Shown here: positions 27-10,723 of the stretch, piece by piece
Position numbering within the stretch: the first letter of the stretch is position 1
Layout: each line of letters opens with the position of its first letter
Assembly: GCA_964228455.1 (NCBI GenBank)
Contig: CAXQZM010000043.1
Location: 22,633-86,632 of the forward strand
Reading direction: 5' to 3'
From: Alphaproteobacteria bacterium
GTDB taxonomy: Bacteria; Pseudomonadota; Alphaproteobacteria; UBA7985
Length of the DNA stretch: 64,000 nucleotides
Position numbers and translations under genes: made by a program
The notes under the pieces: model-generated
The model's database searches: none
The model's input: the letters and a program-made list of their open reading frames with translations, nothing else
What the model was told of the DNA's origin: nothing

Positions 27-650
27 GTGACTGGAAAACTCCAAACAGTATACAAAGCAAATAGCACTGAGGCACAAAAGCTTGCTTATGACGAATGGGC
101 AGGTGAGTACGAGCGAGACTTGCTTTCTCAGGGGTATACTTTGCCAAGCCAGTGTGCCACGCTTTTTGCCGCATTTGTTTCTGAGCGTAGAGGGCCTTTT
201 CTTGATGCGGGCTGTGGCACCGGAATGCAATTAGAGCCCCTCCATATGGCTGGATTTAGAGGGTTTACCGGCATTGACTTATCGATGGGCATGCTATCGA
301 TCGCTCGCCGCAAGGGAATGCACGATGAGCTTTTCCAGGCGACCATGGGAGAGAGACTGCCTTTTGAAGACAGTCAATTTAATGCAACGCTTACCTGTGG
401 AGCCATCACTCAGGGGCACGCACCGGCCAAGAGTTTTGATGAATTAATACGGGTTACTAAGTCTGGCGGTCTGATTGTTTTCACGCTGCGCTGCGACGAC
501 GGTATCAACCACTCGTATGCGGACCGCTTGAGTGAACTCCTACACGAAGGTTGCTGGAGAGTGATTTATGAATCGACTCCGAGGATAACCTTTCCGTTGG
601 GAGAAGAAACACATATTCAGCACAAGGGATGGGTATTTGAGGTCGTTTAG
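27..650 (+). CDS. class I SAM-dependent methyltransferase
   Basis: 207-aa ORF with GTG start. Glycine-rich SAM-binding motif I (LDAGCGTGMQ) followed by an acidic motif II (GIDLS), typical of Methyltransf_11/25-type enzymes. Confidence 0.7.
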   Translation: MTGKLQTVYKANSTEAQKLAYDEWAGEYERDLLSQGYTLPSQCATLFAAFVSERRGPFLDAGCGTGMQLEPLHMAGFRGFTGIDLSMGMLSIARRKGMHDELFQATMGERLPFEDSQFNATLTCGAITQGHAPAKSFDELIRVTKSGGLIVFTLRCDDGINHSYADRLSELLHEGCWRVIYESTPRITFPLGEETHIQHKGWVFEVV

Positions 651-825: not shown

Positions 826-1770
826 ATGAAAAAATTTGCATTTGCAGCGTCTACTCTGGCGCTTTCAACTGGCATCGCTGCCGCAGACGTAAACGTTGCT
901 TTCTTTCTTGAATGGGCAACTCCAAACCAGATCGCTAAAGTAGAAAAAGCTTATGATGATGCGATGGGTACAGATATTAACTGGACTAACTTCAACACTG
1001 GTGTTGGGATGTCTGAAGCCATGATTGCTGGCGAGATCGACATCTCTTATTCTCAAGGCTTAGCTCCCTTTGTAAGCGCGGTCGCTTCAGGTGCGCCATT
1101 AAAGATGGTTTCAATTGCTGTAGAATATCCACCTAACAAGTGCTTCGTAGCTGACTCTCTAGGGATCACAGCAGACAATGCCGCAGATCTAGAGGGCATG
1201 ACTGTAGCCGTTCCTTTGAACACTATGGCCGATTTTTCTTTCCGTAAGCAAATGACAGCACTTGGTGTAGACATTGATGAAATTAATGTTGTTGACCAAG
1301 ATCCTGCATCTGGTGCTGTTGCACTTGCCGAAGGAGCTGTTGCTATGGCTTGTATTTTCGGTGGTGCATCGTCTGCTAAAGCTGATGAAGTAGGAACAGC
1401 ACTAATGGACAATGCGGCACTAGCAGCTGCTGGCATCCAAGCGTTTGATGTTGTGTCTGTCACAGAATCTTTCGCTGCAGAAAACCCAGATCTAGTGCGT
1501 GAGTTCTTAGCTGTAACAGATGCAGCTAATGCTTCGTTTACAGGTTCAGATTCTCAAATGGCCATTATTGCGGCTGACGCCGGCATGGACGTGGAAACCA
1601 CAAAAGCTCAAATGTCGGAGTTCGTATTCCCTTCAACTGAGGCTCAGTTAACTAATTATTTCGGACCTGATGGAACAGCGGCAGCGGCAGCAGCATCTCT
1701 TGGGTTAGTATTCGGTGCAGACGATGCAGCACTGCTTGCATCAACTATCGACGGCTCTTTCTTAGAGTAG
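826..1770 (+). CDS. ABC transporter substrate-binding protein, taurine/sulfonate/nitrate (NitT/TauT) family, TauA-like
   Basis: N-terminal signal peptide (MKKFAFAASTLALSTGIAAA). Pattern of conserved blocks resembles E. coli TauA (recalled, not aligned). An RBS-like GGAGG sits upstream. Confidence 0.7.
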   Translation: MKKFAFAASTLALSTGIAAADVNVAFFLEWATPNQIAKVEKAYDDAMGTDINWTNFNTGVGMSEAMIAGEIDISYSQGLAPFVSAVASGAPLKMVSIAVEYPPNKCFVADSLGITADNAADLEGMTVAVPLNTMADFSFRKQMTALGVDIDEINVVDQDPASGAVALAEGAVAMACIFGGASSAKADEVGTALMDNAALAAAGIQAFDVVSVTESFAAENPDLVREFLAVTDAANASFTGSDSQMAIIAADAGMDVETTKAQMSEFVFPSTEAQLTNYFGPDGTAAAAAASLGLVFGADDAALLASTIDGSFLE

Positions 1771-1869: not shown

Positions 1870-2667
1870 ATGGCTGACTTGCTGGTCCAAGATCTCAATA
1901 TGACCTTCACCAATCCTCAGACGGGGGCAGCGGTCGAGGCCTTAAAGAACGTTAATTTTACCCTAAAAAAGGGTGAGTTACTCTCAGTTTTAGGCCCGTC
2001 TGGATGTGGGAAGACAACCTTACTCAATTTAATTGCTGGATTTATAAATCCAACAAGCGGCGGTTTAAGCCTGGGACAGTCATCCATAAAGGGGCCAGGT
2101 GTTGAGAGAGGGATGGTGTTCCAACAGGGAGCTTTATTCGAGTGGCTTTCTGTAGCGCGCAATGTGGATTTTGGTCTTAGGCAAAAGGGAATAAGCCCAG
2201 AGGAGTCCGAGTCCTTAGTTGAGAAATGGCTAGATATCGTTGGCCTTCAAGGGTTTGGGGATACGCCAACATATCAGCTTTCCGGTGGAATGCAGCAGCG
2301 CGTGGCATTGGCCCGCTGCTTGGTAAATGATCCGGACCTTATTTTGATGGATGAGCCTTTAGGCGCTCTGGATGCGCTAACTCGCGAAAAGATGCAGTCT
2401 CTAGTGCTTGAGCTGTGGAAAGAGACGGGTAAGACAATTATGATAATTACCCATTCGGTTGAAGAGGCCTTACTCTTGGGTGAGCGTTTATTTGTAATGG
2501 CTCCACGGCCCGGTCGTCTTCACAAGGAATATAATCTTCCGTTTGCTGAGATGGGACTGAAACAATCATTGCGCGAGGTAAAGCAAGACCCTCAATTCAA
2601 TGACGTTCGCGAGGAGATTCTTTCCATGATCTGGGATATGGAAGAAGAGATTATGGGGAAGGTTTAG
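1870..2667 (+). CDS. ABC transporter ATP-binding protein, NitT/TauT family (TauB-like)
   Basis: Walker A (GPSGCGKTT), ABC signature (LSGGMQQRVALARCL), Walker B (LILMDEP). Start moved from 1801 to the ATG at 1870 (MADLLVQDLNMTF), which is more typical for this family. Confidence 0.85.
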   Translation: MADLLVQDLNMTFTNPQTGAAVEALKNVNFTLKKGELLSVLGPSGCGKTTLLNLIAGFINPTSGGLSLGQSSIKGPGVERGMVFQQGALFEWLSVARNVDFGLRQKGISPEESESLVEKWLDIVGLQGFGDTPTYQLSGGMQQRVALARCLVNDPDLILMDEPLGALDALTREKMQSLVLELWKETGKTIMIITHSVEEALLLGERLFVMAPRPGRLHKEYNLPFAEMGLKQSLREVKQDPQFNDVREEILSMIWDMEEEIMGKV

Positions 2668-2671
2668 TTAA

Positions 2672-4813
2672 ATGACTCGCTCCAACCTGCTGTATGCGCT
2701 CTACGGCCTGCTCGTCGTCTGGGCTGCATATGTGCTCCTGCCACCGCTCCAGGGGCTAGTGTCATCAACATACGGAGGTCTGGCGACAAGCTTACATAGT
2801 TTGTACCGCGCGTACGCAGATGCCGTAGCACCACTTCTGACATGGACATCAATTAACCGAGGCGTCTTCGCGGCAGTTATAATTATCATTTTAGCCACCT
2901 TATTTGTTTGGTCTATAGTCATCGGCTTAAGGCAGTCAAAAATACGAGAAAAAGACGAAGTGTTTGGTGATCCTGAGCGCACACGAGGGGGCTGGTACTG
3001 GATGGTCTGTGGCCTCGCATCTTTGGCATTGGTTTGGTTCTATTTTTCTTGGGGAGCAGCTCGAGCGTTTTTTCCTAATGCGGCTAACGAAATATGCCAG
3101 GTTGCAACGCTTAATACGGCAATGCGTCCAATCGGCGGTGCGCTGCCACCGCGATATTTCCTAGGAACAGAGGTCATAAGGGCAACGCATAATGAGATTT
3201 CAGAAATTAAACTTCTAAGTACCCGAGTTGCCCTAACAGAAGCACAACGCGCCGAGATAGGAACGCTAACAAATGAGTTAGAGGCGCTGATGTCAGAGCT
3301 CTCTGATCCAGAGGCTCTGTCAGAAGAAGTTTCCGCTGAAATCATTGCTGTCTCAGAGGGGCTAGCCTCAGCAGCAAATGACCTTCGGTCAGGATTTCAC
3401 CCTAATATGGCTGATGAACAAACTCTCCTTCAAAATAGAGCGCAAGGAGCAGGGGGCATCGCGGACGAGGCAACTAAAGAAATACCATTTAGCCCTATCT
3501 CTTCCCGCGGAAGTTTATTTGTGGCGGTTGCAGGAGATGTTGAGCTGCTAACAAAGCAATTTCAGGGAATTAAAAACCTTACTGGCGATCGCAAGGTTAG
3601 GATTGATGCGCTTAAAGATGATATAAAAGCGTTGAAGGCTGAGTTCGCTGAAATCACGGACCAGGATAGCGCGAACCGCACTCGGATTATTCGTAAACTC
3701 GAAGGCAGGTCGAGAGCCATTGCTCGGGGAACTATTTTTCCTCCTCAAGCATTAGATCCGATAGAAGATTCCATGCTGTCTCTTGCTAGCGCCTCTAATG
3801 TGGCGCAGGGCGGTCTTTGGTTTGTGGATGCCATCATGCTACCCACAAGTACGATAGAGAGAACCGCTACCGTATGCACTGAGTTTGGTTCTGGCCGCTG
3901 GTTACCAAAGCCACTCGATGTAATCGCGCGCTTTGGAGAGATGGCAAATATTCATCTAAACTCTGACGCAACGGCAGTAAATGAAGATACCGGACAGCCA
4001 TTCCGGCCTGGAGGAATGAAGGGCGTAAGACTTCTGTGGGTGAAGTGGTTGCCTATATCAGATGTCGTGGCGCCCCTTATTCCCAATGGTTTGGTAGATT
4101 TGTTGCCTGGGGAGTATCCAACGCATCAAGAGGATGGAACTTTCAGGCATAATTTCAAATCCCGTGTTCTGGCGTTTACTCAAGGCGATGTGAATCTTGG
4201 ATATATACCAATGCTCGATGGCCACGTTTGGGATTCTTTATACCGTGTCATCGTCGCTATGGCGTTGGGAATAGGCATTGGCGTCCCCTTGGGGATTATG
4301 ATGGGCGCATCGAGATTTTTCAAATCATATTTTGATCCTCTTATAGAACTGTACCGACCGATCCCGCCACTAGCATGGGCACCATTGATTTTGACCGCTA
4401 TTGGTCTTGGCGATGCAGGCAAAATCACGCTTCTTTTCATGGTAGCGCTCGCCATCATGATTATTTCTGCGAGAACGGGCGCAATATCAACGCAGCTCTC
4501 CAAAATTAGGGCATCTCATTCGCTCGGCGCAAGCAATCGGCAAATTTTACGGCAAGTGATTCTGCCTAATGCTTTGCCAGAAATACTTACTGGTATTCGA
4601 ATTGCGATCGGTGTTTGTTGGGGAACTTTGGTTGCAGCGGAGCTATTAGCTGGAGAGACGGGAATAGGGTTTGTTGAAAATATTGCATCAAAGACCCAGG
4701 ATTATACAACAATCTGGGTAACCATATTAATTATGGGAATGCTTGGCTTTGCACTCGATCTTCTCATGCGCTGGGTTATTGCAAAGACAATACCTTGGAG
4801 AGGGAAGGGGTGA
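2672..4813 (+). CDS. ABC transporter permease, TauC-like, with a ~430-aa insertion in the first periplasmic loop
   Basis: The C-terminal ~225 aa matches my recollection of the TauC permease core, including IELYRPIPPLAWAPL, the EAA-like region SLGASNRQILRQVILPNALPEILTGIRIA and ELLAGETGIGF. The N-terminus carries a TM1-like segment. In between lie two extra hydrophobic helices and a ~380-aa hydrophilic domain with helical/coiled-coil-like stretches. The stop of the upstream ATPase is 4 nt before the ATG. Confidence 0.8.
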   Translation: MTRSNLLYALYGLLVVWAAYVLLPPLQGLVSSTYGGLATSLHSLYRAYADAVAPLLTWTSINRGVFAAVIIIILATLFVWSIVIGLRQSKIREKDEVFGDPERTRGGWYWMVCGLASLALVWFYFSWGAARAFFPNAANEICQVATLNTAMRPIGGALPPRYFLGTEVIRATHNEISEIKLLSTRVALTEAQRAEIGTLTNELEALMSELSDPEALSEEVSAEIIAVSEGLASAANDLRSGFHPNMADEQTLLQNRAQGAGGIADEATKEIPFSPISSRGSLFVAVAGDVELLTKQFQGIKNLTGDRKVRIDALKDDIKALKAEFAEITDQDSANRTRIIRKLEGRSRAIARGTIFPPQALDPIEDSMLSLASASNVAQGGLWFVDAIMLPTSTIERTATVCTEFGSGRWLPKPLDVIARFGEMANIHLNSDATAVNEDTGQPFRPGGMKGVRLLWVKWLPISDVVAPLIPNGLVDLLPGEYPTHQEDGTFRHNFKSRVLAFTQGDVNLGYIPMLDGHVWDSLYRVIVAMALGIGIGVPLGIMMGASRFFKSYFDPLIELYRPIPPLAWAPLILTAIGLGDAGKITLLFMVALAIMIISARTGAISTQLSKIRASHSLGASNRQILRQVILPNALPEILTGIRIAIGVCWGTLVAAELLAGETGIGFVENIASKTQDYTTIWVTILIMGMLGFALDLLMRWVIAKTIPWRGKG

Positions 4814-4823
4814 TCAGGCCATC

Positions 4824-5693
4824 CTAACCATTTATCAACGCAGAAATTAGCGCAACTTTAACGATATCATCTGTGGTCGCGCCTCTTGATAGATCCGCGA
4901 TTGGCTTTGCAAACCCGTGTAGCAAGGGTCCTATCGCCTGTGCTCCAGCGAGTTCTTGCATTAGCTTATAGCCGATATTGCCAGCATCAATATTTGGAAA
5001 AATTAAGGTATTTGGATTTGCTGCGTTTATGCCTTTGCGTACACCAATTTCAGGATTTAGTGCAGCGTCGCCTTGGACAGGGCCGACGGCCTGGATGCCC
5101 TTGTTTTTTAATTCGCTTGCCGCTGCTCGCACTTTGTCGACGCTAGCGCCTGAGCCGCTTGTGCCAGTGGAATAGGACAAAAAAGAGATTCGAGCATCAC
5201 CAAAAAGCAACTTCGCAGCCTTCGCTAAGTGATGGCCAATATGAACTAGTTGATCTTTGTTTGGATTAATATTTACTGCACAATCGCCAAAAAGCAGCTG
5301 CTTTCCGCTTGGAAAACTCATTAAAAACGAAGAACAAATCAGGGGTGCATCCGCCTCCAGACCTACAGCTCGAAGACCTGCTCTTAAGACAGTTGCCGTC
5401 TCGGTTGCGGCACCAGAAACAAGGAAGTCACCTTTGCCTAGGGTCAATAAAGCTGCAGCTCGATGGGTTGGATCCTGTAAAAAAAGGTCAATTTTGTCTT
5501 CTGATAGACCAGGTTTAACCCTCCTAAAAGGCTCCCTCATTTTCTCCTCAGGATCGCCTGGTTCAACAATTATACACCCTAGATTTGCCAGACGATTGGC
5601 AGCCTCAGCTACTCGACTATCGTGCATTTCTGGTATGATGATGCGAGGGCAGGTTTTCTGCACATGGGCTTGAGCTATGTTTATGAGGGTCAT
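4824..5693 (-). CDS. phosphate acetyl/butyryl-transferase (PTA_PTB family)
   Basis: 289 aa, short-form Pta/Ptb architecture. The glycine-rich C-terminal half is typical of phosphotransacylases. Confidence 0.65.
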   Translation of the reverse strand: MTLINIAQAHVQKTCPRIIIPEMHDSRVAEAANRLANLGCIIVEPGDPEEKMREPFRRVKPGLSEDKIDLFLQDPTHRAAALLTLGKGDFLVSGAATETATVLRAGLRAVGLEADAPLICSSFLMSFPSGKQLLFGDCAVNINPNKDQLVHIGHHLAKAAKLLFGDARISFLSYSTGTSGSGASVDKVRAAASELKNKGIQAVGPVQGDAALNPEIGVRKGINAANPNTLIFPNIDAGNIGYKLMQELAGAQAIGPLLHGFAKPIADLSRGATTDDIVKVALISALING

Positions 5694-5765: not shown

Positions 5766-7244
5766 ATGTCAGGGTTAACCCAGTTTAAAATGCTCATCAA
5801 TGGAGCAGATGTAAATGCAAGTGATGGAGGCAAGCGCAAATCTATTGATCCTTCTACAGGCGAGCCTTGGGCTGAGTTTCCCGAGGCAACAAAAGAAGAT
5901 GTGGATTTAGCTGTAAGGGCTGCGCACTTAGCCCAAACGTCAGGGCCATGGTCCAAACTGACGCCAACGGAGCGAGGCCAAGCTTTATACCGTCTTGCCG
6001 ACGCCCTATCTGAAAACGCTGACAACATTGGGAGGCTTGAGACCCGAGATACGGGAAAGCTTCTGAAAGAGACTGTCTGGCAGGCAAAATATATTTCTGA
6101 CTATCTGAGGTATTTTGGAGGCGCTGCTGATAAGATATCTGGTGACACGCTACCAATCGATAAGCAGGACATGTTTGTCTATACCTCGAGGGAGCCCCTC
6201 GGTGTAATCGCTGCGGTGATCCCATGGAATTCACAACTATTTTTGTCAGCAACAAAGATAGGCCCTGCACTAGCAATGGGAAATACCCTGGTTTTAAAGG
6301 CTTCAGAGCATGCTCCTGCGCCATTGCTAGCATTTGCCAAGCTAGCCAAAAAGGCGGGAATCCCTGATGGTGTGATTAACGTAATCACTGGCGGTGGAGA
6401 GCCATGTGGAAGAGAGTTAACCAGTCATAATCTTGTTTCAAAAATAGCATTTACCGGCGGTGGCTCCGCTGCGAGGCACGTAGTCAGAAACTCAGCTGAA
6501 AATTTTGCGCAGGTATCTTTAGAGTTAGGAGGAAAGTCACCTTTTATTGTTTTTGATGATGCCAATATATCAAGCGCTACAAATGCTTGTGTGGCAGGGA
6601 TTTTTGGGGCGTCAGGTCAATCTTGTGTTGCTGGGTCTAGGCTGTTGGTTCAAGAAGACATCGCGGATCTTTTCGTAGAAAAGCTTTCCAGAATTGCTGA
6701 AAATATTCGTTTGGGGGATCCCGCAGACGGTAGTACGGAGATGGGTCCGTTGTGCACTATCGAACAGATTAAATTGATTGACGACCAGATCAACAAAGCG
6801 GTTTCTGATGGCGCAAAGGTAGTATGTGGGGGAGGCCGGACAGAGGGGAAGGGCCTGTTTTTTAAGCCAACAATCGTTGACTGTCCTGATTCTAAAATAA
6901 ATATTTTAGACACGGAGCTTTTTGGGCCAGTTTTGTCTGTTGTCCGATTTAAAACCGAGGCTGAAGCAATCATGCTGGCCAACGATACTAAATACGGACT
7001 AGCAGCTGGGGTTTTTACCAATAATCATAGCCGGGCGTTACGTATGTCAAAGAATTTACGAGCAGGCATTGTGTGGGTAAATACATATCGAGCAATTTCA
7101 CCGATTGCTGAATTTGGTGGTGAGCGCATGAGCGGTTATGGCCGTGAAGCAGGCTTTCAGGCCTTATATGACTATTCCCAGACCAAGTCAGTTTGGATGA
7201 ACCTATCGGATGAGCCCGTAGCCAATCCGTTTCGGCCGCGTTAG
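5766..7244 (+). CDS. NAD(P)-dependent aldehyde dehydrogenase
   Basis: ALDH glutamate box ELGGKSP, catalytic Cys context GQSCVAGSR, and the FTGGGSAARHV motif. Confidence 0.85.
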   Translation: MSGLTQFKMLINGADVNASDGGKRKSIDPSTGEPWAEFPEATKEDVDLAVRAAHLAQTSGPWSKLTPTERGQALYRLADALSENADNIGRLETRDTGKLLKETVWQAKYISDYLRYFGGAADKISGDTLPIDKQDMFVYTSREPLGVIAAVIPWNSQLFLSATKIGPALAMGNTLVLKASEHAPAPLLAFAKLAKKAGIPDGVINVITGGGEPCGRELTSHNLVSKIAFTGGGSAARHVVRNSAENFAQVSLELGGKSPFIVFDDANISSATNACVAGIFGASGQSCVAGSRLLVQEDIADLFVEKLSRIAENIRLGDPADGSTEMGPLCTIEQIKLIDDQINKAVSDGAKVVCGGGRTEGKGLFFKPTIVDCPDSKINILDTELFGPVLSVVRFKTEAEAIMLANDTKYGLAAGVFTNNHSRALRMSKNLRAGIVWVNTYRAISPIAEFGGERMSGYGREAGFQALYDYSQTKSVWMNLSDEPVANPFRPR

Positions 7245-7249
7245 AACAA

Positions 7250-8284
7250 ATGAGGTTTCAACTCGCGATAAATCTAGAAAGAACCTCGTCAAGCCAGGAC
7301 ATGTCAAAGGTCGCCTCTCATACGTTAGAGATGGTTCAAATGGCTGATCAGGCAGGGTTCGAAATAGTTTGGGCTGCAGAGCATCATGCTTTGGAGATGA
7401 CAATTGCTCCCAATCCGTTTCAATTGCTTACTTGGTGGTCTCAACACACAAGCCAAATAAGAATGGGCTGCGGCGTGGCAAATGCAGCTTATTGGCATCC
7501 AATCAATTTGGCGGGTGAGGCCGCAATGTGTGATTTAATATCTGGGGGCCGCCTGGAGCTAGGTCTAGGATCAGGAGCATATCAGCGCGAATTTGATCGC
7601 ATGCGACCGGGTGTTGATCAAAAAGACGGCTACAGATACCTCCAGGAAATGCTGCCTCTCATTCGAGAGCTTTGGAGTGGAGATGTGGCTCATAATGGAG
7701 AGTTTTGGCAATTTCCCAGTGCAACTTCAGTGCCCAAGCCCATCCAAAATGACGTTCCCATCTGGGTTGCTGCTCGCAGCCCAGTTACTTTTGATTATGC
7801 GGTTGAACAGGATGCCAACATTATGTCATGGCCGCTTACGCTCGGGTTTGAAGAGGCCGAAAAATATGCTTCACTTCGAAAGGAAGCAATCGAAAAATTA
7901 CCAGGCTCAACACCAAAGAAATTTGTGATGATGCGTCATACAGCAGTGTATGAATCGTCAGAGGATCGAAGAGCTTCTATGGCTGCGATTCGTCATAATT
8001 TAAGCCAGTTTGGAAACTTAATGACTAAGCGAGGAGAGGTTGAAAACGGGTTTCCTGAGCTTGTCCCATTCGACCAGATTGAGGGTAATGCGCGAGTGGA
8101 TTCAAGCATGCTAGAGAATAATCTTGTGTTTGGATCTGCAGAGCAAGTTACGGAAAAGCTTAAGGCATATCAGTCACTCGGGATCGACGGTTTTATTTAT
8201 TATTCTTCAATGGGGCTTGATCACACAGTACAAAAGCGCTCCCTAGAAACCTTTATTGAGAGAGTGATCCCTAACTTCAACTGA
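7250..8284 (+). CDS. LLM-class (luciferase-like) flavin-dependent oxidoreductase
   Basis: 344 aa with TIM-barrel LLM-family features. Sits 6 nt downstream of the ALDH gene, so probably co-transcribed. Confidence 0.7.
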   Translation: MRFQLAINLERTSSSQDMSKVASHTLEMVQMADQAGFEIVWAAEHHALEMTIAPNPFQLLTWWSQHTSQIRMGCGVANAAYWHPINLAGEAAMCDLISGGRLELGLGSGAYQREFDRMRPGVDQKDGYRYLQEMLPLIRELWSGDVAHNGEFWQFPSATSVPKPIQNDVPIWVAARSPVTFDYAVEQDANIMSWPLTLGFEEAEKYASLRKEAIEKLPGSTPKKFVMMRHTAVYESSEDRRASMAAIRHNLSQFGNLMTKRGEVENGFPELVPFDQIEGNARVDSSMLENNLVFGSAEQVTEKLKAYQSLGIDGFIYYSSMGLDHTVQKRSLETFIERVIPNFN

Positions 8285-8337: not shown

Positions 8338-9069
8338 GTGTCTAATAAAGTAATACTAATCCATGGCCTTGGGCTCAGCACGTCAATGTGGGATGTTTTC
8401 GTCCCTGCTATTGAGAGTTGGGGTTTTGATGTTTTAACATACAACCTCCCCGGCCACGGAGGTGATGCGCCTGTAAAGCGATCACACGATTTACAGCTAT
8501 ATGTAGAGCAAGCCCTGGCTCAAATGGATAAAATTGGCTGGGACTGTGCGCATTTAGTTGGTTTTTCCCTAGGGGGCATGATAAACCGAAAATTGGCGTT
8601 GTTAGAGCCTCACCGAACCGCATCTTTGTCTATCTGGAATTCACCTCACGATCGCGGAGAGCACCAGCAGGCGGCAGTTGAGGACCGAGCAAGAAATTCT
8701 CGACAGTATGGCGTTGATTCAACTCTGGAGGCAGCCTTAGATAGGTGGCTTACGGCAGAAGCCACGGATGATCTGAGAAACCAGGTTCGGTCATGGCGTA
8801 GGAGCTGTGACCCAGGCTCATATGCAGAAGCTGCCTGGGTGCTAGCTAATGGCGTGCCAGAGTTGGTGAACGCAGAGCCAACAAAGCAGGTGCCAACGCA
8901 AGTTATTACATGTGAGAATGATGTTGGTTCAACGCCAGATATGGCCAGAAAAATAGCGATGGCGCTAAAAGCCGAAACGGTGGAGATTATCCCGGGATTA
9001 AAACATCTAGGTCTCCTTCAGCGTCCAGACCTCTTTTTGGATCCGCTTAAGAAATTTTTATCCTCTTAA
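8338..9069 (+). CDS. alpha/beta-fold hydrolase
   Basis: Nucleophile elbow GFSLGG and an HGLG oxyanion region near the N-terminus. Confidence 0.65.
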   Translation: MSNKVILIHGLGLSTSMWDVFVPAIESWGFDVLTYNLPGHGGDAPVKRSHDLQLYVEQALAQMDKIGWDCAHLVGFSLGGMINRKLALLEPHRTASLSIWNSPHDRGEHQQAAVEDRARNSRQYGVDSTLEAALDRWLTAEATDDLRNQVRSWRRSCDPGSYAEAAWVLANGVPELVNAEPTKQVPTQVITCENDVGSTPDMARKIAMALKAETVEIIPGLKHLGLLQRPDLFLDPLKKFLSS

Positions 9070-9835: not shown

Positions 9836-10723
9836 GTGGCAGGAATGAGAATTGATGCACATCATCACCTTTGGGACCTAAAAGCCGTTTCTTATCCATG
9901 GCTGGAAGCCAAGGGCGTGTCCCGATTTTTTGGAAACCCGGCGTCTATTCAACGCAACTATATTTTGGATGAGTTTCGTCAGGATGCATCAACAGCAAAA
10001 GCACAGGGCTCTGTTCATATTCAAGTCGGAGCCGCTGATGGGCTTCAAGAGGCTTTGTGGGTTCAGAAAGTGGCAATGTCAAATTTGGACTGGCCGCTAA
10101 AGCAGGTTGTTTTTTGTGATCTCACCAGTAGCAATTTAAAGAACCAGTTAGACCAATTTCAAAGCCTTTCGTCGGTAGTGGGTGTCCGTCAAATAGTTGG
10201 TAGAGCTCCGGGGGAAGATACCGCGACGGGCACTCAAGGGTTATTGTCGGACCGGAGGTTCGTTGCAGGATTGCATGAAGTTGCAGCCCGTGGCCTCTCA
10301 TTCGATTTACAACTGATTCCAGAATTAATGGAAAAAGCGGGCTCTGTACTTAGAGAGGTTTCTGAGCTGAAAGTTGCCTTGTGTCATGCTGGTTCTCCAC
10401 ATGATCGAAGTCCGTCGGGGCTAAAGTTTTACGCCAAAGAACTAACCTCTTTGAGTATGAATCCGAACGTAGTCTGCAAGATCTCAGGTCTTGGAATGTT
10501 TGATCATGATTGGACAGCTAAAAGTGTGAAACCCTTTTTTACCGCATGTTTATCGCAGTTTGGTGCCGAAAGACTAATGTTCGGGTCTAATTTTCCAGTT
10601 GATTCTCTTAGCTCAACCTACCATCAGTTGGTTAGTAGGCATAGTGAGCTTATAGAGGAAATAAGCGCGTCGCAGCGGGATCAATTTTGGGGTGGCACGG
10701 CTGAGAGGTTTTATGGATTCTAG
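9836..10723 (+). CDS. amidohydrolase-2 family protein (metal-dependent TIM-barrel hydrolase)
   Basis: N-terminal MRIDAHHHLWDL motif typical of Amidohydro_2 (LigI/fuconolactonase-like). Confidence 0.7.
   Translation: MAGMRIDAHHHLWDLKAVSYPWLEAKGVSRFFGNPASIQRNYILDEFRQDASTAKAQGSVHIQVGAADGLQEALWVQKVAMSNLDWPLKQVVFCDLTSSNLKNQLDQFQSLSSVVGVRQIVGRAPGEDTATGTQGLLSDRRFVAGLHEVAARGLSFDLQLIPELMEKAGSVLREVSELKVALCHAGSPHDRSPSGLKFYAKELTSLSMNPNVVCKISGLGMFDHDWTAKSVKPFFTACLSQFGAERLMFGSNFPVDSLSSTYHQLVSRHSELIEEISASQRDQFWGGTAERFYGF

Follow-up and report, generated by a model that had tools for sequence, protein, structure and literature searches.

The stretch of DNA analysed here, 64,000 nucleotides in length and referred to as the window, carries a TauC-type permease gene of unusual size, and this raises the questions whether that size is genuine, on which side of the membrane the additional sequence lies, and what it might contribute to transport. 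Canonical TauC, SsuC, NrtB and CmpB permeases count ~250-280 aa, join TM1 to TM2 by a short loop and lack additional helices, unlike the long form encoded in the window (Table 1), which does have in common with them the TM2-TM6 core with its EAA loop, the NMT1-type substrate-binding protein (SBP) and the TauB-like ATPase. In the ocean, taurine serves as a major currency of carbon, nitrogen and sulfur, of which SAR11 takes up a large share (PMC11485210, PMC6647121), and whereas the SBPs of these bacteria have been characterised, the membrane part of the importer has so far been treated as an ordinary 'TauC'.

The family membership of the permease could be established from its C-terminal part. 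Pfam model BPD_transp_1 (PF00528) matched aa 537-705 only (91.8 bits; cutoff 26.4), which marks the protein as a type I ABC importer permease, and the EAA coupling loop was located around aa 606-640. The best NCBIfam models were TauC, SaoP, ntrB and SsuC; the TauC model (NF007545) aligned aa 516-712 to profile positions 77-273 of 275 and scored 167.5 bits against a cutoff of 342, so that the protein is not an E. coli-type TauC equivalog. As both models align to the C-terminal core only, the ~515 N-terminal residues are extra, and searches of the whole protein against Pfam and NCBIfam connected these residues to no family. The core matched the PDB sequences of CmpB (9u9z) and NrtB (8w9m) at 1e-20 to 1e-21, with 26-29% identity over ~190 aligned columns and a Foldseek TM-score of 0.56-0.59 on the target; its fold matched CmpB, NrtB and MetI, and OpuA was a weak match. 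The solved NitT/TauT comparators are NrtBCD (8w9m/8wm7/8wm8) and CmpBCD (9u9z). With TauC, NrtB, CmpB and SsuC as nearest relatives and with an NMT1-type SBP and a TauB-type ATPase as partners, the protein belongs to the NitT/TauT family and, judged by its sequence, represents a diverged subfamily with a different N-terminal half.

Table 1. Features of the long permease and of its neighbours, with positions in the window and residues of the permease
Feature	Residues (aa)	Position	Strand	Basis or remark
Periplasmic SBP, TauA-like, NMT1 fold		826..1770	+	Pfam NMT1/NMT1_2; Sec signal peptide, no lipobox
ABC ATPase, TauB-like		1870..2667	+	Pfam ABC_tran; best NCBIfam model TauB
Long TauC-type permease gene	713 aa	2672..4813	+	ATG start; predicted 8 TM, N-in and C-in
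TM0	5-26	2684..2749	+	Absent from 638-647-aa and SAR11 641-aa forms, conserved in own clade
Short periplasmic segment	27-62		+	Directly after TM0
TM-A, out-to-in	63-85	2858..2926	+	Hydropathy maximum 2.94; all clades
Cytoplasmic loop, invariant VFG[D/N]PER..GG	86-107	2927..2992	+	Alignment including SAR11; K+R count
TM-B, in-to-out	108-127	2993..3052	+	Hydropathy, clade alignment, K+R count
First periplasmic helix, invariant P..ANE.CQ motif including C142	128-163	3053..3160	+	Clade alignment
Helical bundle, about 7-8 helices of ~20 residues	164-380	3161..3811	+	AlphaFold2
Membrane-proximal subdomain, conserved	381-516	3812..4219	+	Clade alignment, AlphaFold2
NitT/TauT-type core, TM2-TM6	517-713	4220..4810	+	Pfam, NCBIfam, PDB sequence matches, Foldseek
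Pta-like phosphotransacylase, convergent neighbour		4824..5693	-	Pfam PTA_PTB

The possibility that the long gene stems from a frameshift, an assembly chimera or a wrong fusion of two genes had been raised in the preliminary description and is raised again by the databases, where some members of the family are listed in split or truncated form (e.g. 332-aa 'Pelagibacter' calls) and where three related loci (L084, L086 and L087) do contain frame breaks. Against this, the gene in the window is one ORF without interruption or frameshift, with its ATG located 4 nt past the stop codon of the ATPase gene; the identical 713-aa protein is an independent NCBI entry on a 98.6-kb contig; a cluster member was found on 12 contigs; and the protein is collinear over its full length with orthologues at 60-98% identity. 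Moreover, the breaks in the split entries differ in position from contig to contig, and an unbiased sample of ~55 SAR11-type metagenome loci, restricted to those with complete upstream sequence, contained nothing but intact ORFs of 640-642 aa. An artefact is thereby ruled out for practical purposes, with a probability that we consider negligible, and the very large extra region attached to a TauC-type core, as described earlier, is real. A length of exactly 332 aa recurs in hundreds of database entries and prompted the reading that the gene is naturally split in SAR11 into an N-terminal module and a 332-aa permease; the variable break positions and the intact SAR11-type loci rule this out as well. 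Many ~330-aa Pelagibacter 'TauC' entries are truncated calls of the long gene.

The architecture is no rarity and turned out to be the standard form in hundreds of marine proteobacterial species. At least 318 homologues of the N-terminal 517 aa were found, and nearly all complete homologues listed were either 638-647 or 708-721 aa long and contained BPD_transp_1. A collection with one genome per species yielded 193 matches, corresponding to at most 193 species (where seen, these were all metagenome-assembled genomes), and the same architecture recurred in more than 570 SAR11-type metagenome stretches; more than 700 operons are available, and plasmid-borne copies were not found. The long form is thus the standard in the abundant ocean bacteria SAR11, SAR116 and the roseobacters and is, within the literature searched, previously undescribed. 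That the additional ~1.2 kb of coding DNA is retained even in the highly streamlined genomes of SAR11 (1.2-1.4 Mb; PMC11485210) speaks for an important function.

Hydropathy analysis of the 713-aa protein placed three hydrophobic helices in its N-terminal part, at about aa 5-26, 63-85 and 108-127, after which the next one begins only at aa 519. The first of these, TM0, had been regarded as the TM1-like helix of the permease, followed by two added ones. This assignment has to be revised: TM0 is specific to the clade of 708-721 aa and is lacking in the 638-647-aa majority, TM-A is an extra helix common to the whole family, and TM-B occupies the position of canonical TM1, of which it is the topological equivalent. 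The extra helices are therefore the two N-terminal ones, and the family-wide order is a TM-A/TM-B hairpin with a K/R-rich VFGDPER loop, the large domain and then the core. The loop residues F98, G99, P101, E102, R103 and G107 are invariant, SAR11 included. For the 713-aa form this predicts eight TM helices with the big domain in the loop from core TM1 to core TM2.

The periplasmic location that had been proposed for the domain on topological grounds is supported by the distribution of charges, with 5.5 K+R per 22 residues in the TM-A/TM-B loop vs about 1.3 in the 15-residue stretch that follows TM-B, and by an invariant Cys pair (see below); the K+R counts of the core loops agree with an N-in, C-in topology. 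The segment preceding core TM2 is periplasmic in the solved structures of NrtB and CmpB, which places the domain on the same side. A cytoplasmic domain, with aa 452-475 (LLWVKWLPISDVV...) as a degenerate TM1, was considered and rejected; that segment contains K and D residues and stays below the hydropathy threshold, and the positive-inside counts and the Cys pair favour the periplasm instead.

The periplasmic domain comprises ~390 residues (aa 128-516) out of the ~515 that precede the core, and its parts differ in conservation, which peaks beside the membrane and is lowest in the distal bundle when clades are compared. Within the first periplasmic helix, P135, A138, N139, E140, C142 and Q143 are invariant. 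The bundle that follows was modelled by AlphaFold2 with pLDDT above 90 and evolves fast (21-28% identity between clades), with conserved loop motifs SDP (211-213) and QP.WG....EIP.LP..RG (258-280); an internal duplication within the bundle was not detected (hhalign probability 3.5%). The membrane-proximal subdomain shows 40-58% identity between clades and many invariant residues, with the motifs C402-.E.G.GRWLPKP.D, LLW.KW, PD...D.LPG.Y and QGD..LG.IP, and was modelled with moderate confidence (pLDDT 46-87) as mixed alpha/beta. The earlier term 'helical domain' hence holds for aa 164-380 but not for aa 381-516. The domain contains exactly two cysteines, C142 and C402, both invariant across all clades.

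Searches for relatives of the domain gave a uniform outcome. Pfam, at E <= 1 and with 16 domain sequences as queries, returned coiled-coil noise only; a sequence-profile search of the PDB returned nothing significant, and a fold search of the PDB found no relative and no likeness to an SBP. Other architectures containing the domain were sought by a profile search of 1.84 billion representatives, which recovered this family and apparent fragments only. The literature search found neither a long TauC nor a structure of a TauBC complex. The preliminary description had stated that no homologue with such a domain was known, and within the literature searched this agrees with the lack of a family model, a solved structure or a paper. 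A dedicated family model for the domain is warranted.

The gene context connects the permease to a taurine-type importer. Both partner genes are intact, as had been noted. The SBP scored 87 bits with the NCBIfam TauA model (cutoff 304) and was below the cutoff of the SsuA model as well; among solved structures, E. coli TauA (6ssy, E 7e-13) comes closest to it. Its sequence identity amounts to 67% with the SBP of the 642-aa clade and to 41% with that of SAR11. The ATPase also remained below the cutoff of its NCBIfam TauB model (277 bits; cutoff 357), and its identity across clades is 76-84%. The order SBP-ATPase-permease was found in 62-63 of 79 related loci, with one permease gene per operon. 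Genes near these 79 loci encoded: an aminotransferase (21 loci), a MocR-type regulator (14), a Pta-type protein (13), a SoeA-like molybdoenzyme (12) and Xsc (7), and the assignments of Xsc (919 bits; cutoff 676) and ω-aminotransferase (588 bits; cutoff 500) were above the cutoffs. The recurrence of Xsc, Pta-like, ω-aminotransferase, MocR-type and SoeA-like neighbours points to taurine or sulfoacetaldehyde catabolism. Within the 64-kb window xsc, tauR and soeA are absent and the Pta-like gene is the sole neighbour of a taurine-pathway type, a possible link to sulfoacetaldehyde catabolism. Since these three genes are absent and the SBP scores far below the TauA cutoff, the substrate of the 713-aa clade is assigned from orthology alone, with taurine as the putative substrate. 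Experimental taurine binding has been reported for the SAR11 SBP SAR11_0807 (PMC11485210), a putative counterpart of the SBPs in the SAR11 loci analysed here.

What the domain does is best approached through the maltose importer. The P2 domain of MalF lies between MalF TM3 and TM4, which correspond to core TM1 and TM2 and follow two extra N-terminal helices; P2 is bound to MalE at all stages of transport and sends signals to MalK (PMC6906923). Like MalF, the long TauC has eight TM helices in total, begins with extra N-terminal helices and carries its large periplasmic domain in the loop that joins core TM1 to core TM2, and its operon resembles the MalFGK2-MalE system in having a separate soluble SBP. 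More than half of the long TauC is an uncharacterised periplasmic domain at the site of MalF's SBP-binding P2. The differences are also clear: P2 counts ~185 aa and is Ig-like (beta), whereas the domain here counts ~390 aa and consists of a helical bundle and a small alpha/beta subdomain, without detectable similarity to P2 in either fold (Ig-like) or sequence; the transporter family and the substrate of MalF differ from those of a taurine-type importer; and binding of the SBP has been demonstrated for P2, with Kd values of 7-22 µM for MalE, whereas for the domain here we infer it. The heterodimer MalFG contains only one P2, but in the long TauC family the single permease gene per operon leads us to expect a homodimer with two domains (at 43 kDa each, two such domains per dimer might obstruct rather than aid SBP docking).

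The reading that we favour, with a probability of about 0.4, is that the long TauC is a marine taurine-type importer permease in which the ~390-aa domain would capture or dock TauA in a manner analogous to MalF P2. The transporter is a type I ABC importer that most likely consists of a long TauC homodimer, a pair of TauB-like ATPases and a TauA-like SBP that is free in the periplasm, and in which a family-specific module precedes TM2-TM6 and supplies one extra helix (two in the 713-aa clade), the helix at the TM1 position and the 390-residue domain. A C142-C402 disulfide would probably staple the membrane-proximal subdomain, which together with the bundle above it could form a docking and capture platform that holds TauA at the translocation gate. 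A loaded SBP held at the gate would allow efficient delivery at the taurine concentrations of seawater (nanomolar or lower), and the ATPase may receive information on docking through the TM-A/TM-B hairpin with its invariant loop in the cytoplasm. That conservation of the domain is highest beside the membrane, where an SBP would dock, supports docking. Among the functional ideas of the preliminary description, which included a tethered accessory or receptor domain and a gating module, we thus prefer the receptor-like one in the form of SBP docking.

Two other roles for the domain have to be weighed against docking of TauA. The bundle might be a periplasmic sensor or gating module that responds to the state of the envelope or binds a small molecule such as taurine, a different sulfonate or an ion, and that regulates transport in trans from the periplasm through the TM-A/TM-B hairpin and a VFGDPER loop contacting TauB, which we consider unlikely. 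The periplasmic four-helix-bundle sensor families (4HB_MCP, TarH, HBM and TorS-type) gave no family-model match and no specific fold match. The periplasmic sensor domain of TorS does bind an SBP-like protein, TorT, but TorS is a histidine kinase and not a transporter, and membership of a TorS-type family is not supported, as the match was no better than that of dozens of unrelated helical bundles and sequence similarity was lacking. Alternatively, the domain could serve structure or assembly only, by dimerising above the membrane and so stabilising the TauC homodimer or by anchoring or positioning the transporter in the envelope, without specific contact to the SBP. The two domain copies expected per dimer, the frequent role of helical bundles in oligomerisation and the fast evolution of the distal part are in line with this, but canonical TauC, NrtB and CmpB dimerise without such a domain, the strongly conserved loop motifs GSGRWLPKP and QP.WG..EIP.LP suggest a specific interaction surface, and the upkeep of the extra sequence by streamlined SAR11 speaks for more, so that a purely structural role seems quite improbable.

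Docking of TauA can be carried further, to a form that is tentative and that we regard as possible but rather doubtful. The domain may be an unrecognised fold and family confined to marine taurine-type importers, which keeps TauA bound to the gate or reports its loading to TauB via the TM hairpin and the VFGDPER loop, and which would then be a second, independently evolved solution to the task of MalF P2, aiding SAR11, SAR116 and roseobacters in scavenging taurine at very low ambient concentrations. The domain offers a testable handle on how oligotrophs couple SBPs of very high affinity to their translocators. Importers of the OpuA (OpuABC 7ahc) and GlnPQ type likewise have a large extracytoplasmic domain covalently joined to a type I importer permease; there, the fused domain itself adopts a class-II SBP fold and takes the place of a free SBP, whereas the domain of the long TauC is not SBP-like and is accompanied by a separate SBP gene.

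The long TauC-type permease is encoded by a single ORF that starts 4 nt past the stop codon of the ATPase gene, and an identical protein is present in NCBI from an alphaproteobacterial MAG; an artefactual origin of the long form is considered extremely improbable. Within the protein, Pfam recovered only BPD_transp_1 (aa 537-705), and the NCBIfam TauC model aligned aa 516-712 to profile positions 77-273 of 275 (167 bits versus a cutoff of 342). Because BPD_transp_1 was found there and the TauC profile aligned only from position 77, the C-terminal 197 residues are a NitT/TauT-type permease core that lacks the first helix; the ~515 residues N-terminal to it received no family assignment from Pfam or NCBIfam. 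The preliminary description, which reported a TauC-type permease with a large extra N-terminal region and separate upstream genes for the SBP and the ATPase, was confirmed on these points.

Features of the permease (aa numbering of the 713-aa protein), of its surroundings in the window and of related loci (L numbers)
Feature	Location	Strand	Remarks
Class-I SAM methyltransferase	27-650	+	directly upstream of SBP
Same, orthologous locus (73-79% identical)	L001:7356-7979	+	
Methyltransferase flanking one SAR11 locus	L084:7067-7708	-	
SBP, NMT1-type	826-1770	+	Pfam/NCBIfam
ABC ATPase, TauB-like	1870-2667	+	Pfam/NCBIfam
Long TauC-type permease	2672-4813	+	713 aa
Element 1, TM-A	aa 63-85		start of family-wide unit
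Element 2, 22-residue loop	between TM-A and TM-B		invariant VFG[D/N]PER..GG; F98, G99, P101, E102, R103, G107
Loop motif VFG[D/N]PER..GG..W	2960-3001 (aa 97-110)		K/R-rich
Element 3, TM-B	aa 108-127		
Element 4, helix	after TM-B		invariant P..ANE.CQ, including C142
Element 5, helical bundle	aa 164-380		
Element 6, membrane-proximal subdomain	aa 381-516		invariant C402-.E.G.GRWLPKP.D; also LLW.KW, PD...D.LPG.Y, QGD..LG.IP
Element 7, core	after aa 516		end of family-wide unit
Pta-like phosphotransacylase	4824-5693	-	matches only profile positions 91-319
Aldehyde dehydrogenase	5766-7244	+	
Luciferase-like monooxygenase	7250-8284	+	
Alpha/beta hydrolase	8338-9069	+	
ORF, 239 aa	9047-9766	-	overlaps end of hydrolase gene
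Amidohydrolase_2	9836-10723	+	
ABC exporter-type protein, 712 aa	10692-12830	+	ABC_membrane from aa 186, ABC_tran 487-632
SoeABC-like set	L002:1-3715; L014:11478-14336	-	and 10 further loci
332-aa class, examples	L084:5072-6999; L086:3073-4999; L087:3093-4999; L088:14-1848		proteins P0364, P0371, P0378, P0397

Hydropathy placed helices at ~aa 5-26 (TM0), 63-85 and 108-127, and the next hydrophobic stretch only at aa 519. Alignments to NrtB and CmpB show that the first helix of the core corresponds to TM2 in the six-helix NitT/TauT fold, so the segment ahead of it must be periplasmic. The TM-A/TM-B loop contains 5.5 K+R per 22 residues versus ~1.3 in the 15 residues that follow TM-B, and the core loops show the expected inside/outside alternation. 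The predicted topology of the window protein is: N-in, TM0, TM-A, TM-B, periplasmic domain, TM2-TM6, C-in (8 helices). The extra helices and the domain described earlier thus exist, but their order was given as TM1 followed by two inserted helices and the domain, whereas alignments, hydropathy and charge counts point to two extra N-terminal helices, then a helix in the TM1 position, with the domain in the TM1-TM2 loop. Two cysteines, and no others, occur in the domain; they are invariant throughout the clades, SAR11 included, which would fit one structural periplasmic disulfide.

TM0 and aa 27-62 were found only in the 708-721-aa clade, to which the window protein belongs; in the 642-aa group and in SAR11 (641 aa) the protein begins shortly ahead of the second helix. 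Identity of the window protein to the 642-aa clade and to SAR11, respectively, was: 72% and 37% (TM-A/TM-B hairpin), 28% and 21% (bundle), 58% and 40% (proximal subdomain), and 78% and 68% (core). The loop motif is conserved like the transporter core in all clades, SAR11 included.

The domain had no family match in Pfam or NCBIfam (Pfam at E ≤ 1 across 16 members gave coiled-coil noise only), and a PDB sequence-profile search with it returned nothing significant. Among 1.84 billion cluster representatives, a profile search recovered 161 proteins, none with another architecture: two were full-length 642-aa permeases and the others, all ≤371 aa and collinear, appear to be partial members of this family. 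AlphaFold2 modelled the full-length protein only moderately well (pLDDT 69.6) and the domain by itself well (pLDDT 80.7, pTM 0.71; bundle helices >90, proximal subdomain 46-87); Foldseek with the domain gave no match at E ≤ 1e-3 (TM-scores ≤0.2), and no internal duplication was detected. The domain is unmentioned in the literature searched. What is new is an undescribed, family-specific periplasmic domain of 390 residues that lacks relatives in sequence or solved structure; nothing is unusual about the core, the operon or the likely substrate.

The long permease, presented earlier as a rarity, turned out to be a widespread, overlooked feature. The N-terminal 517 aa as query matched at least 318 proteins; those listed, bar a few fragments, measured 638-647 aa (~40% identity) or 708-721 aa (60-98%), and all full-length ones contained BPD_transp_1. 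A domain-only alignment gave at least 193 matches in a one-genome-per-species collection, an undercount because the SAR11 version escapes its search patterns. The 80 of these that were listed are all MAGs, from SAR116/Puniceispirillales, Paracoccaceae/Rhodobacteraceae, Hyphomicrobiales and Poriferihabitaceae, and from the gammaproteobacterial Granulosicoccaceae, Arenicellales and Acidiferrobacterales. Among the matches listed for the core-only query (aa 517-713) there was no 642- or 713-aa protein, not even the 98%-identical P0001, so that lengths in this list are no evidence of short forms; abundant in it were 332-aa entries assigned to 'Candidatus Pelagibacter', with starts within the domain. 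A natural gene split in SAR11 was rejected: the frame breaks lie at four different positions in four contigs. SAR11-type metagenome contigs were also scanned without bias (>574 stretches, 80 fetched), and each locus that extends far enough upstream (~55) contained one intact ORF of 640-642 aa. The 332-aa class arises from errors of gene calling or assembly, and the long form is present in SAR11 as well. Abundant database clusters of 332-aa proteins under the name 'Candidatus Pelagibacter ABC transporter permease / taurine transport system permease' contain shortened versions of the 641-aa gene product, called from an internal Met that follows a frame break or a contig end. The most abundant marine heterotrophs have the domain in their taurine-type importers, and the streamlined genomes of SAR11 have kept it.

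The closest functional analogue would be the P2 loop of MalF, a large periplasmic domain between TM3 and TM4 (core TM1 and TM2) that follows two extra N-terminal helices, stays bound to MalE during the whole cycle and signals to MalK; P2 has been called unique to the maltose transporter, most type I transporters having no large P2 loop (PMC6906923). The insertion site and, in the clade of the window protein, the 8-helix topology are the same, whereas the fold is unrelated and the domain twice larger. From this combination we tentatively propose, with a probability of about 0.4, an independently evolved module for SBP capture and docking. The SBP would be contacted by the conserved membrane-proximal subdomain together with the conserved loops of the bundle, and the invariant cytoplasmic VFG[D/N]PER loop of the hairpin is a candidate contact with TauB, possibly the second one between permease and ATPase. 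A sensor or gating module, to which a generic fold resemblance and a receptor-like layout point and nothing else, seems unlikely, and a purely structural or dimerisation role somewhat more so; other functions take the remaining probability. The experimental path for this widespread feature is clear.

The order SBP-ATPase-long permease was conserved wherever the contig permits (62-63 of 79 related loci), with a single permease gene per operon, and the permease is therefore expected to be a homodimer. The recurrent neighbours included: ω-aminotransferase (21/79; AptA model, 588 bits, cutoff 500), SDR (17/79), DAO-type FAD oxidoreductase (15/79), MocR-type regulator (14/79), Pta-type enzyme (13/79), a SoeA-like molybdoenzyme with Fe-S and NrfD-type partners (12/79) and sulfoacetaldehyde acetyltransferase Xsc (7/79; 919 bits, cutoff 676), which is the gene set for conversion of taurine via sulfoacetaldehyde to acetyl-phosphate and sulfite. 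The SoeABC-like set that repeatedly adjoins the operon (~900-950-aa molybdopterin subunit, Fe-S subunit, NrfD/DmsC-type membrane subunit) fits cytoplasmic sulfite oxidation after desulfonation. E. coli TauA is the nearest solved relative of the SBP, and the SAR11 SBP SAR11_0807 binds taurine experimentally (PMC11485210). For the window transporter the putative taurine assignment rests on orthology (SBP 67% and ATPase 84% identical to the 642-aa clade).

We know of no link between the methyltransferase upstream of the SBP and taurine transport. Further downstream, the N-terminal ~185 aa of the ABC exporter-type protein had no Pfam match, and the 239-aa ORF, which Pfam left unmatched at E ≤ 1e-5, is possibly not a genuine gene. 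The short Pta-like gene is the sole local pathway hint; xsc, tauR and soeA were not found within the 64-kb window. The genes downstream of the permease, from Pta-like phosphotransacylase to amidohydrolase_2, may form a catabolic cluster for another sulfonate or amine than that of the classic Xsc loci.
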